A stretch of 64,000 nt of DNA from an uncultured delta proteobacterium. GTDB taxonomy: Bacteria > Myxococcota_A > Polyangia > Haliangiales > Haliangiaceae. The notes beneath the pieces were generated by a model, which was not told where the DNA came from, did not search any database, and saw only the letters and a list, made by a program, of their open reading frames with translations. Below, piece by piece: positions 19,959 through 45,303 of the stretch. Numbering within the stretch: position 1 is the stretch's first letter; each line of letters begins with the position of its first letter. Position numbers and translations under genes: made by a program. The stretch spans positions 352,001-416,000 of the forward strand of contig CAWKDB010000011.1 of NCBI GenBank assembly GCA_963848295.1, in the 5' to 3' direction.

Positions 19959-20795
19959 TCAGCTGGCGCGCGACACGAGCGCGACGATCTGATCGTGAAG
20001 CACGCCGTTACTTGCCAACGCAGCGCCGCGCTCGAGTACGAGTGGCTCGCCGCGCCAACCGGTGCACTTGCCGCCGGCTTCCTCGACGAGCAACGAGCCC
20101 GCCGCGAGATCCCACGGCTTGAGCTTCATCTCCCAATAACCGTCGAACGTGCCGGTCGCGACCATCGCGAGATCGAGCGCCGCCGAGCCGTAGCGCCGCA
20201 CGCCGCGGACCTTGAGCTTGACCGCCATGAACTGCGCGAAGTTGTTGTCGGGCGACGTCGCGCGATCCGACGGGAAGCCGGTGCCGAGCACGGCGCGGTC
20301 GAGCGCCGCGGTGTCGGAGACCGCGAGCTTGTTGCCGTTGCAGAACGCGCCGCCGCCGCGCACCGCGGTGAACGTCGCGCCGAGCACCGGCGCGTGGACC
20401 ACGCCGACATCGACTCTGCCGTTCACCGAGCGCGCGATCGCGACGCAGAAGAACGGCAGGCCGTGCGCGAAGTTCGTCGTGCCGTCGAGCGGATCGACGT
20501 ACCAGATCGCGCCGTCGCGATCGCCGTCTTGCCCGCCGCCCTCTTCCGCGATCACGCGATCCCCGGGAAACGCACCGCCGAGCCGATCGACGAGCAGGGC
20601 TTCGGACCGGCGGTCGAAGTCGGTGACGAGGTCGAACTCGCCGGCTTTCGTCGCGGCGCGCTGGCGCAACCCGAGCAGCGCGGCCGGGCCACCGGCAAAT
20701 CCACTAGCCAGTAACGCGCCCGCCTCCCGCGCGGCGGCTACAGCGACCTCGAGCGCGCGCTGCGGATCGGCGATGGTCGGCACGGGCGCGGACAT
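19959..20795 (-). CDS. suhB: Inositol monophosphatase family protein
   Basis: DLVT, IAEE, WYVDPLDGTTNFAHG, RRYGSAALDL, WDLAAG. Divergent from the lipid cluster. Confidence 0.9.
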   Translation of the reverse strand: MSAPVPTIADPQRALEVAVAAAREAGALLASGFAGGPAALLGLRQRAATKAGEFDLVTDFDRRSEALLVDRLGGAFPGDRVIAEEGGGQDGDRDGAIWYVDPLDGTTNFAHGLPFFCVAIARSVNGRVDVGVVHAPVLGATFTAVRGGGAFCNGNKLAVSDTAALDRAVLGTGFPSDRATSPDNNFAQFMAVKLKVRGVRRYGSAALDLAMVATGTFDGYWEMKLKPWDLAAGSLLVEEAGGKCTGWRGEPLVLERGAALASNGVLHDQIVALVSRAS

Positions 20796-20833
20796 TGGCA
20801 CGATCTGGCACCCCGGGGGACCCCGTGATCCGT

Positions 20834-20847
20834 CTTCCATCTGGAAG
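20834..20847. promoter_or_regulatory. Palindrome in the divergent IMPase/cluster promoter
   Basis: CTTCCA-TC-TGGAAG, flanked by two CGTGAT copies, in a 77-bp intergenic region. Confidence 0.35.
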
Positions 20848-20872
20848 GGGCTTCGTGATACGCCCCCCGGCG

Positions 20873-21844
20873 ATGAACGTCCTGGTTACCGGCGGTAACG
20901 GTTTCATCGGCTCGGTCGTGGTGCGCACCCTCGTGGCCGAAGGCCATAAGGTCCGTTGCCTGCTCAGGGAAACCAGCAAGACCGACCGGCTCGATGGCGT
21001 CACCTACGAACGCGCCATCGGCGACGTTCGTGACGCTGCTTCGATCACCGAAGCAGCCTCCGGCTGCGACGCGATCATCCATCTCGCGAGCCTGTCGGCC
21101 TGGGACCAGATCGACTCGCCCCTGATGGACGAGGTGGTCGAGGGCGGCACCCGCAACGTGCTCGCTACCGCCAAGGCAACGCCGGGGACGCGGGTCGTGT
21201 TCGTGTCGAGCATCCTCGCGGTCAACGGCTCGGATCGGCCGAAACAGTTCGACGAGGCGTCGGTCTGGACCGTGCCCGACGCGCACCTCAAGTACTCGCG
21301 CTGCAAGCGCCGCGCGGAGGCGATGTGCATGGCCGCGGTCCGCGAAGGCGTGCCGGTCATCATCGTCAACCCGGGCGAGGTCTACGGGCCGAACGATACC
21401 GCGCTGATCACCGCCTGCAACCTGATCGACTTCGCGAAGAGCAAGCCCGTGTTGGTGTGCAGCGGCGGCACGTCGGTCGTGTACATCGACGACGTCGCAC
21501 TCGCGATCGTGCGCGCGCTCGAGAAGGGCCGCGTCGGCGAGCGCTACATCCTCGGCGGCGACAACCTCAGCGTGCAGGACCTCGCGAAGCTGTCGCTCGA
21601 GCTGCTCGGCCAGAAGAAGACGATCCTCAAGGTGCCGAACGCGGTGATCAAAGCGATCGCGACGATCGGGACCAGGTTTCGCCTGCCGCTGCCGTTCAAC
21701 GCCCACGTCATCCCCTACGCCACGAAGTACTGGTTCATGTCGAACGCGAAGGCGAAGCGCGAGCTCGGGGTCGAGTTCCGCTCGGCGCGCGAGACGCTCG
21801 GTCCCACGCTCGACTGGCTGCGCCAGACCGGGAGGATCTCGTGA
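20873..21844 (+). CDS. Extended SDR / NAD-dependent epimerase-dehydratase (DFR/HpnA-like reductase)
   Basis: VLVTGGNGFIG, HLAS, YSRCK (YxxxK), NPGEVYGP, GERYILGG. Confidence 0.88.
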   Translation: MNVLVTGGNGFIGSVVVRTLVAEGHKVRCLLRETSKTDRLDGVTYERAIGDVRDAASITEAASGCDAIIHLASLSAWDQIDSPLMDEVVEGGTRNVLATAKATPGTRVVFVSSILAVNGSDRPKQFDEASVWTVPDAHLKYSRCKRRAEAMCMAAVREGVPVIIVNPGEVYGPNDTALITACNLIDFAKSKPVLVCSGGTSVVYIDDVALAIVRALEKGRVGERYILGGDNLSVQDLAKLSLELLGQKKTILKVPNAVIKAIATIGTRFRLPLPFNAHVIPYATKYWFMSNAKAKRELGVEFRSARETLGPTLDWLRQTGRIS

Positions 21845-43051: not shown

Positions 43052-43279
43052 GGCGATCGCGCTCTCGTCGCCGAGCGCGGCGTCGCCGCGAGGGATGCCG
43101 CGGAGAGCGAGTGCAGGCGCGCGAGGAGACGCTCGGATCTTTGTAAGACACCTACTCGCGCGCAGCGCGATCGCCGCTCCGCGGCGTCGCTCCGCGGCGT
43201 CGCCGAGAACCGCCACCGCCTGCGCCGTCGCACGAGCGGGTCCGGGGCACCCTCGCAAGGCAGCCGCGCGAGGCCTTCG
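43052..43279 (-). repeat. ~230-bp non-coding element, right (inverted) copy
   Basis: Reverse complement of 41525..41754. Its outer end overlaps and is extended by tandem CGCGAGGCCTTCG units. Confidence 0.85.
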
Positions 43280-43320
43280 CGCGAGGCCTTCGCGCGAGGC
43301 CTTCGCGCGACGGGCTACGA

Positions 43321-43402
43321 GCACGAGCACAAGCACGAGCACGAGCACGAGCACGAGCACGAGCACGAGCACGAGCACGAGCACGAGCACGAGCACGAGC
43401 AC
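43321..43402. repeat. (GCACGA)n microsatellite, ~13-14 units
   Basis: Directly visible. One unit is GCACAA. Confidence 0.95.
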
Positions 43403-43419
43403 AGGCGGGGCCGCGGCCT

Positions 43420-45303
43420 CTACGCGAGCGCGGAGGCGATGAGTCCCGCGGCGCGCGTCGCCATCGCCATGATCGTCAGCTGCGGGTTGACGCCGAGCGC
43501 ACTCGGCACCGTGCTGCCATCGACGATGTAGAGGTCGCGCACGTCGTGGCTCTGGTGATCGAGCCCGACGACGCTCGTCTTCGGATCCTTGCCCATCTTG
43601 CACGTGCCGAGCGGGTGATAGCTCGCGAGCGCGAGCTCGCTCGGCGCCGGCGGAGACGCGCGAAACTTCGCGAGCTCGCCGACCTCGACGATCGGCATGG
43701 TCGAGCGGCCGGCGTAGAGTCGCTTCGCGCCGGCGGCGGCGAGGATCTCGAACATGTGGACCATCCCGGCGTGCAAGCGGTCGCGATCGTCGCGCGTCAC
43801 CGAGTACGTGATCGCCGCGCGCCCGCCGACATCGCGCCACACGCGGCCGGCCGCGCCGGCATCGCGCACGCAGACGCCGAGCGACGCGACGTGCGGCAGC
43901 CGATCGAGCACGTCCATCAATGGCCGGCCCGCGAGCTGAAAGATCTGTGCGGCGACGTTCGTCGTCGGTTGCGCGGCCGCGATCAGCTGGCCCTCGCGCA
44001 GGAACTGATCGCAGCCGTAGCCTTGCGGGATGTGACCGGCCGGATCGATGACGTCGTCGAACAGACCGGCGACGCTCGTCGACGGATGGAGCGTCAGGTT
44101 GCGACCGACCTGCCCGCTTCCGTTCGCGATGCCCTGGCCGAGCAACAGCAGCGGCGTCGGCACGCTGCCGCCGGACAGCACGACCGCGCGGCCGCGCACG
44201 CGCAGCCGCTTGCCGTTGCTCGCGACCCCTTCGACGCCGGTCGCGCGCCCGTCGTCGATGATGATGCGTTCGACCTTGAGCCCGGTGAACAGCTGCGCGC
44301 CCGCGGACAGCGCCGGCGGGATGTACGACAGATTCGTCGAGCGCCGGGCATCGGTGCCGCAGCCGAGATCGCAGAACCCCAAGCCGGTGCAACCTCGCGC
44401 GTTGCGCCGGATCGCGAAGTGGCGCCAGCCGAGGTGGTCGCAGCCGCGCGCGACGATGTTCGCGATCGCCCCGATCTCGGGTTGGATCGCGGGCGTGACG
44501 TCGAGCGTGTCCTCGACGCGTGCGTAGTGTGGCTCCATCGCTTCGCGCGACAGCTCGTCGGTGCCGAGCCGCTCGCACCATTCGTCGAGCACCCACGCCG
44601 GGGTGCGAAAGCAGGTGCCGCCGTTGATCGCGGTCGAGCCGCCGACCATCCGGCCGATGAAGATCGGCATCACGACGTTGCCGACCGAGACCGCCCCTCG
44701 ATAAAATCGCTCGTGCGCGCGCACGAGGCTGCCGTCGAATGCGTCGCGACGGTAGTGCTCGCCCTCCTCGACGTAACACACCGCGAGGCCGCGTTCGGTC
44801 AGCTCGCGACCGACGACCGCGCCGCCGGCGCCGGTGCCGATCACGACGACATCGCACTCGACGTCACCGCCGTCCCACTCGGCGGCGCGATGGATCTGGC
44901 TGAGCCAGCGCGGGCGATCGAGGTTGCCACCGCGGTTGCTCTTGCCGCCCATCGCCGCGATCACGTCGGGCCGATCGAAGTGGACGAGCTTGTACACGAC
45001 GGTGAGGATGTTGAGCGGTTGGCGGAGCAGCGGGTCGCGCTGCCAGGCCTGCACGAGCTCCTCGGCGCGCTCGGGCGCGAGCGACGACAGGCGCCGGCCG
45101 GTGCGCGCGATCGCGGCGGCGTCGAGCGTGCGCTGCGCGATCGCCCACGGCCGAACCAGCCACGGCGCGACGCTGCGGATGACGTGGGTAGCCTCGCGGA
45201 CCGACCGGTCATCGGCCGCCGGGATCGTCGCGCTCCCCGGAATCAGCGCGCGGGCGAGCGCGAGCGCCGAGCGATCCGGCTGAGACGAGAAAAAACCGGC
45301 CAT
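43420..45303 (-). CDS. GMC family FAD oxidoreductase (long-chain alcohol oxidase-like) with an N-terminal accessory domain
   Basis: VIGTGAGG, GRMVGGSTAING, CTGLGFCDLGC, HPLGTCKMG, LGVNPQLTI. Confidence 0.9.
   Translation of the reverse strand: MAGFFSSQPDRSALALARALIPGSATIPAADDRSVREATHVIRSVAPWLVRPWAIAQRTLDAAAIARTGRRLSSLAPERAEELVQAWQRDPLLRQPLNILTVVYKLVHFDRPDVIAAMGGKSNRGGNLDRPRWLSQIHRAAEWDGGDVECDVVVIGTGAGGAVVGRELTERGLAVCYVEEGEHYRRDAFDGSLVRAHERFYRGAVSVGNVVMPIFIGRMVGGSTAINGGTCFRTPAWVLDEWCERLGTDELSREAMEPHYARVEDTLDVTPAIQPEIGAIANIVARGCDHLGWRHFAIRRNARGCTGLGFCDLGCGTDARRSTNLSYIPPALSAGAQLFTGLKVERIIIDDGRATGVEGVASNGKRLRVRGRAVVLSGGSVPTPLLLLGQGIANGSGQVGRNLTLHPSTSVAGLFDDVIDPAGHIPQGYGCDQFLREGQLIAAAQPTTNVAAQIFQLAGRPLMDVLDRLPHVASLGVCVRDAGAAGRVWRDVGGRAAITYSVTRDDRDRLHAGMVHMFEILAAAGAKRLYAGRSTMPIVEVGELAKFRASPPAPSELALASYHPLGTCKMGKDPKTSVVGLDHQSHDVRDLYIVDGSTVPSALGVNPQLTIMAMATRAAGLIASALA

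Follow-up and report, generated by a model that had tools for sequence, protein, structure and literature searches.

In Pseudomonas fluorescens MYb115, sphinganines are produced by three proteins, PfSgaA, PfSgaB, and PfSgaC: an iterative polyketide synthase (PKS), a serine-specific alpha-oxoamine synthase (AOS), and a proposed short-chain dehydrogenase/reductase (SDR) (PMC12134224). The main text of this paper contains none of the terms 'inositol', 'fused', and 'Myxococc'. The canonical ceramide pathway, as described for Caulobacter, is encoded by aasR-cerR-acpR-spt-cerS (PMC11324152). Here we analyze a stretch of 64,000 nucleotides from an uncultured delta proteobacterium (the window; contig C11, positions 352001-416000, of source genome G000, which is 7.8 Mb and 85% complete). 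It contains 13 co-oriented genes (20873-41390), with an inositol monophosphatase (IMPase) gene divergent on the left and a GMC oxidoreductase gene convergent on the right. The original prediction read them as a single pathway joining a PKS-built, sphingoid-like lipid to an (amino)inositol head group. A single pathway is not established: the run consists of two modules that are mostly apart in other genomes. Module A consists of an SDR, a fatty acyl-AMP ligase (FAAL), a CMAS-type methyltransferase, an acyl carrier protein (ACP), a desaturase, a PKS-AOS fusion, an AurF-like protein, and an E2-like protein. Because of a conserved layout and the co-occurrence of GMC and ALDH with GH3 (see below), module B is taken to comprise a GH3 amide synthetase, myo-inositol-1-phosphate synthase (Ino1), a DegT-family aminotransferase, an LPG_synthase_TM membrane protein, the IMPase, an aldehyde dehydrogenase (ALDH), the GMC oxidoreductase, and usually an MMPL protein.

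The reading we favor, with a probability of about 0.45, is that these two modules have been brought together in one Kofleriaceae lineage, module A probably producing a sphingosine- or ceramide-like lipid and module B an acyl amide of amino-inositol; they are probably co-expressed, with B not needing A. The nearest GH3 and PKS homologues carry Kofleriaceae source names. In module A, FAAL would load a fatty acid on the ACP, and the desaturase and the CMAS-type enzyme would desaturate and then methylate or cyclopropanate the chain. The PKS would add a malonyl unit and, having a ketoreductase (KR) and a dehydratase (DH) without an enoylreductase (ER), would leave a trans-2-enoyl chain. The fused AOS would condense this chain with an amino acid, most likely serine, to form a 3-keto base with a 4E bond. 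The SDR would reduce the ketone, the AurF-like protein would hydroxylate, and the E2-like protein may N-acylate the product. In module B, Ino1 and IMPase would provide myo-inositol, an oxidase, for which GMC is the module's sole candidate, would convert it to inosose, and DegT would produce inosamine. GH3 would adenylate a long-chain acid supplied through ALDH and form the amide, and the LPG_synthase_TM and MMPL proteins would move the lipid.

Judged from its genes, module A appears to work like PfSgaABC but not to be a member of the canonical Spt/CerS pathway. As in the Pseudomonas system, it combines a type I PKS chain, AOS condensation with an amino acid, and an SDR predicted to reduce the 3-keto base. 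Compared by description, it differs in having the AOS fused, in adding FAAL, ACP, desaturase, CMAS, AurF-like, and E2-like proteins, and in lacking an ER domain; its SDR resembles epimerases, that of Pseudomonas (SgaC) being described as KDSR-like. The sphingoid-like nature proposed for the PKS arm is supported and finds a proven precedent in PfSgaABC, one that the original prediction did not name. Like the Caulobacter pathway as described, module A has ACP-based acyl activation, an AOS, a reductase, and a candidate for N-acyl transfer. Unlike in that pathway, the AOS is outside the clade resembling serine palmitoyltransferase (SPT), a PKS step is inserted, and a GNAT of the SPT-linked type was not found in G000, G288, G469, G440, or G362. 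In fungi, a delta-8 desaturase and a C9-methyltransferase are described as acting on membrane ceramides (PMC6471014). Module A similarly pairs a desaturase with a cyclopropane-synthase-family methyltransferase on a long-chain base backbone; this is an analogy only, and the module A enzymes, unlike the fungal ones, are soluble and encoded beside an ACP.

For module B, one described relative is the OlsH/OlsI system of Singulisphaera acidiphila, in which the GH3-fold OlsH N-acylates ornithine with free fatty acids (PMC12493201). The module B GH3 shares the fold and all three nucleotide-binding motifs, and likely performs ATP-dependent N-acylation with a free fatty acid. It differs from OlsH/OlsI, as described, in that no OlsI-like hydrolase is present and the neighboring genes would build an aminocyclitol, not ornithine. 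The second relative is the hygromycin A branch, in which Hyg18, Hyg25, Hyg17, and Hyg8 lead to inosamine by myo-inositol phosphate synthase (MIPS), phosphatase, oxidation, and transamination (PMC10949010). The same route is proposed for module B, which, unlike the hygromycin A branch as described, has no Gfo/Idh/MocA dehydrogenase except in the variant of genome G550. The predicted assignment of the right arm to aminoinositol and GH3 chemistry is also upheld. In the literature searched, which excluded most subscription journals, we found no relevant publication on the gene combination, and no characterized pathway matching module B in its open part.

The separation of the modules is clearest for B. 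Counts for the family refer to 138 genomes (G000 and 137 others), those for the phylum to a scan of 400 other genomes. While a first look at 40 relatives gave weak GH3 matches only, GH3 orthologues (E <=1e-20; identities 46-76%) are found in 14 of the 400. In 13 genomes outside the family, GH3-Ino1-DegT-LPG_synthase_TM is contiguous in nine, cut by a contig end in three, and split in one, and MMPL adjoins module B in eight. No PKS-arm gene was found beside B in any of these 13 (up to ~20 kb per side, less on short contigs), nor an AOS more than 40% identical anywhere in their genomes. GMC and ALDH orthologues are each present in 18/18 genomes with GH3 and in 0/24 chosen genomes without it, where the thresholds (GMC, E <=4e-170; ALDH, at least 54%) were set from the outcome itself, the genomes include non-independent kin, the margin in G303 is narrow, and two ALDH matches are cut by contig ends. 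In G132, G091, and G366 (88-94% complete), B is present and only two AOS genes were found, KBL-like and BioF. Because these three genomes have no long-chain AOS that we could find, a joint lipid of A and B is possible but not required.

Module A likewise occurs without B. Twelve of the 137 other family genomes have an AOS match at E <=1e-90, four of them with GH3 (G508, G469, G288, and G482); these are exactly those in which AOS identity is at least 77%. The remaining eight include four with the same PKS architecture, one with a stand-alone AOS, and three of the FAAL-KS-AT-ACP-AOS type (KS, ketosynthase; AT, acyltransferase). Module A is found without B in G440, G442, G443, and G362. Among 160 AOS-aligned loci (the best 80 of at least 596 and the best 80 of at least 587), 29 have DH directly before AOS. 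None of the 29 has GH3 or Ino1, with at least 5 kb downstream available in 17 and with a divergent layout falling beyond the 10-kb flank. In a whole-genome check of 13 genomes with the same architecture, a GH3 orthologue was found in one (G550, on another contig), besides one distant 28% match. The linkage expected from the original prediction thus has a mixed outcome: it exists in five genomes of one genus, but the inositol arm occurs without this PKS in all 13 genomes outside the family, and the PKS without GH3 in four family genomes and 12 of 13 others.

In the five of 138 family genomes in which they are joined, the arrangement of A and B is not the same. In G288 and G469, two operons diverge from one short gap in the order E2<-AurF<-PKS<-Des<-ACP<-CMAS<-FAAL<-SDR, IMP->MMPL->GH3->Ino1->DegT->LPG->ALDH. 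G482 has the same two halves at the ends of two contigs. In G000 the block from IMP to E2 is inverted and the cluster MMPL is gone (a 69% paralogue exists elsewhere); G508 shares the E2-GH3 junction with G000. The divergent form is probably ancestral, since genomes outside the family keep IMP and MMPL beside GH3. An inversion then created the single co-oriented run, a derived state. In an RpoB tree (18 rows, weakly supported, G288 and G508 missing), G000 groups with G469 (92.6/88) and G482 falls among non-carriers with weak support. As this placement is weakly resolved, the linkage of A and B may be a single event.

The core of module A is the PKS-AOS fusion. All expected residues are present in the PKS (KS C204/H339/H379, AT S672, ACP S1078, KR K1437/S1461/Y1474, DH H1581/D1756) and in the AOS (H2065/D2138/H2141/K2173/R2297). 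Among 102 homologues of at least 1900 aa, the catalytic residues of KS, AT, ACP, KR, DH, and AOS are kept in 96-102, those of DH and KR being invariant. An ER sequence pattern matched 0/102, and no ER Pfam domain was found among the best 120. The KR carries an LDD-type Asp (D1419). By standard PKS logic, such a KR and an active DH without ER give a trans-2-enoyl thioester, and condensation with serine by the AOS would put the double bond at C4-C5, as in sphingosine. The domain content thus predicts that the 4E double bond is set without oxygen. Ser2008 of the AOS aligns with the Ser that comes before Arg in SPT 3A2B, and it does not vary among the 102 homologues; this position presumably has a role in amino-acid specificity. 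Other AOS genes in G000 are KBL-like, BioF-like, and divergent KBL-like, and a stand-alone SPT was not found in this 85% complete genome. The fusion also contains an Ala-rich repeat linker between AT and ACP and a low-complexity Gly-Asn/Val linker of ~75 residues between DH and AOS (window 31256-31510).

The neighbors of this PKS in other genomes include FA_hydroxylase, PAP2_3, and GNAT genes, and this context supports a sphingolipid. Orthologues (58-63%) of the extended, epimerase-like SDR are conserved beside the PKS and directly precede it in G440, G442, G443, L125, L211, L251, and L255. G440, G442, G443, G362, and L211 (two genera and L211) share the order PKS-AOS, FA_hydroxylase, E2-like, PAP2_3. 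FA_hydroxylase here lies between the PKS and the E2-like gene, and since the AurF-like gene occupies this slot in module A, its product is likely a hydroxylase. FA2H-like enzymes are described in myxobacteria (PMC10002949). The sister operon of SDR, PKS-AOS, FA_hydroxylase, E2-like, and PAP2_3 is compact and has no FAAL (L097-L102, L103, L211); the SDR is not visible in G362, where the contig ends. PAP2_3 resembles inositol phosphoceramide (IPC) synthase, and ceramide phosphoinositol is reported from myxobacteria. The sister operon is a candidate for a complete PKS-based route to an inositol-phosphoceramide-type lipid. GNAT adjoins the PKS in 5/29 loci of the same architecture, and two of these GNATs, compared with the one that G303 encodes between an SPT-like gene and an SDR, show 36-38% identity to it. 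Elsewhere (L062, L064-L065, L068, L370-L376), FAAL, ACP, desaturase, KS-KS', stand-alone AOS, and thioesterase exist as discrete genes. Such KS-KS'-AOS clusters, found in many Myxococcota and having their own AOS clade, appear to be a type II analogue of module A.

The E2-like protein, listed as an acyltransferase in the original prediction, is confirmed in family and fold, but its catalytic His is replaced by Glu (DERVNDG). Its predicted model has a pLDDT of 88, and the Foldseek matches listed are E2 catalytic cores; no close solved relative was found by sequence. DERxxDG is invariant in 24/24 sequences, Glu standing for the catalytic His of the HxxxDG motif of E2/CAT acyltransferases. The family, a stand-alone E2 fold with invariant DERxxDG, HHL, and NLGS motifs, is found in 171/401 phylum genomes. 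Four SPT- or PKS-linked GNAT queries, taken to be CerS from their position, gave no match in G000 at its 85% completeness, and GNAT is found in 0/5 genomes whose PKS is flanked by the E2-like gene (G000, G288, G469, G440, G362). A role of the E2-like protein as ceramide synthase can be offered as a lead only. The idea that E2-like and GNAT proteins are mutually exclusive ceramide synthases was rejected; it holds per locus and in these five genomes and fails at genome level.

For the remaining module A enzymes, the best solved relatives of the CMAS-type methyltransferase are CFA synthase and UmaA (E 1e-23 to 4e-22), and the desaturase weakly matches plant acyl-ACP desaturases (E 1e-6). Searches with CMAS and KS-AT against solved structures, and with AurF in the ESM Atlas, pointed to no specific function. 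The two diiron proteins may be a working pair. A second, adjacent pair of desaturase-like (73%) and AurF-like (68%) genes is found at 5292-6958 (-) of the window, behind a 4-hydroxyphenylpyruvate dioxygenase-like gene and a divergent LysR gene; this pair was not found in G288.

In module B, the best NCBIfam match of GH3 is OlsH (E 3e-80), at 270 bits against a cut-off of 620. Pfam identifies its N, M, and C domains, and the three nucleotide-binding motifs are present in 120/120 homologues. Ino1 is a canonical MIPS by sequence (E 3.5e-93 to 7NWR, inositol-3-phosphate synthase). The best solved relatives of DegT are 8GYH/8GYI/8GYJ (E 2e-87), followed by others at 5e-58 and by the aminoglycoside inosose aminotransferases at 1e-51. 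8GYJ is Fic25; its substrate is a 5,7-dihydroxy-6-oxo compound, in which the ketone to be aminated lies between two carbinols. The cluster combines MIPS, phosphatase, and DegT-type aminotransferase, as in inosamine pathways. The LPG_synthase_TM protein has six hydrophobic segments; it had been called flippase-like, of which the family match stands, the flippase role being a family-level guess. The partnership of GH3 with MMPL and LPG_synthase_TM suggests an envelope lipid. For GMC and ALDH, neither solved-structure searches nor, for GMC, the ESM Atlas gave a specific function. Conjugation of sterols or hopanoids by module B was considered and rejected: a full-length squalene cyclase was found in 7/17 B genomes searched (G508 excluded). 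A squalene-hopene cyclase-like gene does exist in G000 near an HpnA-like SDR that is 37% identical to the cluster SDR (G000:C10:705362-708248), implying that the host probably makes hopanoids.

The G550 variant (L381:9411-19853) bears on the cyclitol. There GH3 (59-61%) is preceded by genes for an AroB-like cyclase, a LuxS-like protein, an IolG that exceeds its cut-off, an SDR, and a DegT from a different clade. LPG_synthase_TM is nearby, an FAD oxidoreductase is also beside GH3, and ALDH (47%) adjoins another GMC, in keeping with a pair that turns an alcohol into an acid. In the G550 genome we found neither Ino1 nor the B-type GMC. That the ligase is here accompanied by another route to a cyclitol points, in this one genome, to an aminocyclitol amide and fits GMC as the inositol oxidase elsewhere.

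Several observations weigh against the favored reading. On the side of A, the AOS clusters in a quick tree with RedL-like proteins and FAAL-AOS fusions, outside the Bacteroidota-like SPT clade (G303, G203, G268, G342; the tree contained no characterized enzymes). It scores SPT (7e-62) and KBL/AONS (3e-60) alike and falls below all three NCBIfam SPT cut-offs. An SPT-like Nostoc AOS gave no product (PMC8895605), and AOS proteins outside the Spt clade are treated as probably not sphingolipid-forming (PMC11334938). The E2-like protein lacks the catalytic His, its gene mostly adjoins unrelated genes in the 171 genomes that have it, and the protein is also present in two of three genomes whose PKS has a GNAT neighbor. 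An ER might act in trans; the first domain of a second PKS cluster, on C2 of G000, looks ER-like. On the side of B, no inositol dehydrogenase is found in the module, IolG being above its cut-off in 0/5 genomes and only in the G550 variant, so that one of the two possible jobs of GMC is unfilled. Finally, B occurs in the family only together with A (5/5), and 10/13 B genomes outside it hold another long-chain-type AOS.

The last two points lead to the best surviving alternative, a joint lipid in which B caps the product of A, which we regard as possible but unlikely. GH3 would acylate the sphingoid amine, or GMC and ALDH would oxidize a ceramide-like C1 alcohol and GH3 would join the acid to inosamine; in genomes outside the family, the substrate of B would be a base made by another AOS, or else a glycerol backbone. 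A adjoins B in all five family B genomes, and all five with an AOS of at least 77% have B (in G482 the halves are on two contigs). These five are one genus and may reflect one event, given the poorly resolved RpoB tree. The gap from which both operons diverge is shared in G288 and G469, and through the inversion B came to lie behind A in G000 and G508, all genes remaining intact. Linked A also misses the PAP2 head-group gene of the sister operons. B genomes outside the family often have a KS-KS'-AOS cluster (7/13, FAAL seen in four) or an SPT-like gene (3/13), G203 has a GNAT of the SPT-linked type two genes from B, and G550 has a desaturase-bearing PKS-AOS on a different contig from its GH3 variant. 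Against this, B is present without a long-chain AOS that we could find in the three genomes named above, and genomes that lack B can have such AOS clusters too (G435, G347, G109, G342). ALDH and GMC are often neighbors even away from GH3, as for an alcohol-to-acid pair, but if GMC oxidizes the lipid, nothing in B makes inosose.

It is improbable that A produces a diffusible metabolite, such as an amino-ketone, a pyrrole or pyrrolidine formed by cyclisation, or a compound N-oxidised by the AurF-like enzyme, instead of a membrane sphingolipid. The grouping of the AOS with RedL-like FAAL-PKS-AOS proteins, the membership of AurF in an N-oxygenase family, and the patchy occurrence of the cluster (5/138) would fit such a product, but the same PKS neighbors FA_hydroxylase, PAP2_3, and GNAT, a dedicated SDR would remove the ketone, the DH and KR residues are invariant, and A has no thioesterase, exporter, or regulator. 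Slightly less probable still is a phosphorus-free mimic of inositol phosphoceramide. It would consist of a methyl-branched or cyclopropyl 4E sphingosine, N-acylated by an E2-fold ceramide synthase, with a C1 carboxylate made by GMC and ALDH and linked by GH3 to inosamine as an amide; in other myxobacteria, B would serve as a general means of adding this head group to different ceramides or to glycerol lipids. The weakest alternative, in our view very improbable, is that B makes no aminocyclitol amide, with Ino1 and IMPase feeding ordinary inositol lipids, DegT acting on a nucleotide sugar or acyclic ketol, and GH3 making an amino-acid lipid: OlsH as the best named GH3 match, the acyclic carrier-bound substrate of Fic25, and the lack of an IolG above its cut-off in five genomes would agree with it, but B loci show no conserved gene for a CDP-alcohol transferase, nucleotidyltransferase, glycosyltransferase, or OlsI-like protein, a second Ino1 exists in G000 and G203, and G550 retains GH3 with a different cyclitol route.

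The coordinates of the locus are given in Table 1, with gene families assigned by Pfam and NCBIfam. All genes named in the original prediction, including both flanking genes, are present with the families and positions it gave; it did not list the class I S-adenosylmethionine (SAM) methyltransferase between ALDH and GMC.

Table 1. Features of the locus, in window coordinates (position 1 is the first letter of the window)
Feature	Position	Strand	Basis
Inositol monophosphatase (IMPase), module B, moved to the opposite end through the inversion	19959..20795	-	PF00459 E 2e-70
Extended SDR, predicted 3-keto (sphingoid) reductase, module A	20873..21844	+	PF01370/3Beta_HSD, HpnA-like
Fatty acyl-AMP ligase (FAAL)	21841..23757	+	AMP-binding; best NCBIfam fatty acyl-AMP ligase E 3e-153
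CMAS-family methyltransferase (alkene cyclopropanation or C-methylation)	23758..24651	+	PF02353 E 2e-48
Stand-alone acyl carrier protein	24664..24915	+	PF00550
Acyl-ACP desaturase-like diiron protein (FA_desaturase_2)	24921..25733	+	PF03405; two ExxH motifs
PKS KS-AT-ACP-KR-DH fused to AOS, 2352 aa	25730..32788	+	Pfam domains
AurF-like diiron protein, likely hydroxylase	32769..33638	+	PF11583; two EARH motifs
E2-fold protein (2-oxoacid_dh), catalytic His to Glu, candidate N-acyltransferase	33712..34650	+	Pfam; structure model
Module A/module B junction, one inversion breakpoint	34651..34721	.	Order in G288, G469
GH3 acyl-adenylating amide synthetase, module B	34722..36299	+	PF03321/23571/23572
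Myo-inositol-1-phosphate synthase (Ino1)	36300..37571	+	PF07994/01658
DegT-family aminotransferase, predicted inosose aminotransferase	37574..38854	+	PF01041
LPG_synthase_TM/HpnL-like membrane protein, possible flippase	38851..39822	+	PF03706 below gathering score; HpnL weak
Aldehyde dehydrogenase (ALDH), module B	39819..41390	+	PF00171
Class I SAM methyltransferase between ALDH and GMC	41763..42398	-	
GMC oxidoreductase, module B, candidate oxidase of inositol or of a lipid alcohol	43420..45303	-	PF00732/05199

Within the 13-gene run, intergenic spacing is -20 to +12 bp, the exceptions being 73 bp (AurF-E2) and 71 bp (E2-GH3). The FAAL gene may start at 21841 (GTG) or 21919 (ATG). The catalytic motifs of the locus enzymes are intact, and GC content at third codon positions is 0.81-0.92 in the 14 open reading frames measured. 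The gene order is not due to chance, since sub-blocks recur in other genomes. A scan of 19500-39400 found no promoter-like sites and terminators at chance level; the E2-GH3 gap has no promoter or terminator consensus, and its hairpin is no better than those of shuffled sequences. The SAM methyltransferase adjoins ALDH in G508 too (81%) and is absent there in G288 and G482. Further along the window, an MBOAT gene and two GDSL-type genes form an O-acylation-like set (45776-51044, -), with a related set on contig C9. FixG/H/I-like heavy-metal ATPase genes (601-5112, +) and an RND efflux set (55545-61195, -) are named by N-terminal appearance only.

What this analysis adds is the A-B junction, the strict co-occurrence of GH3 with both GMC and ALDH, the variant in G550, the sister operons of FA2H-E2-PAP2 type, and the predicted 4E double bond. 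Module A would carry the PKS sphingolipid route, first shown in 2025, over to a family of fused enzymes with more than 100 sequence clusters. It also yields candidates for a soluble hydroxylase and for a ceramide synthase outside the GNAT type. Module B is a pathway of seven to eight genes in ~3-4% of the sampled phylum genomes, with no characterized product. If the proposed chemistry is true, its acyl-aminocyclitol would represent an envelope lipid new to bacteria as well as a new class of GH3 substrate.

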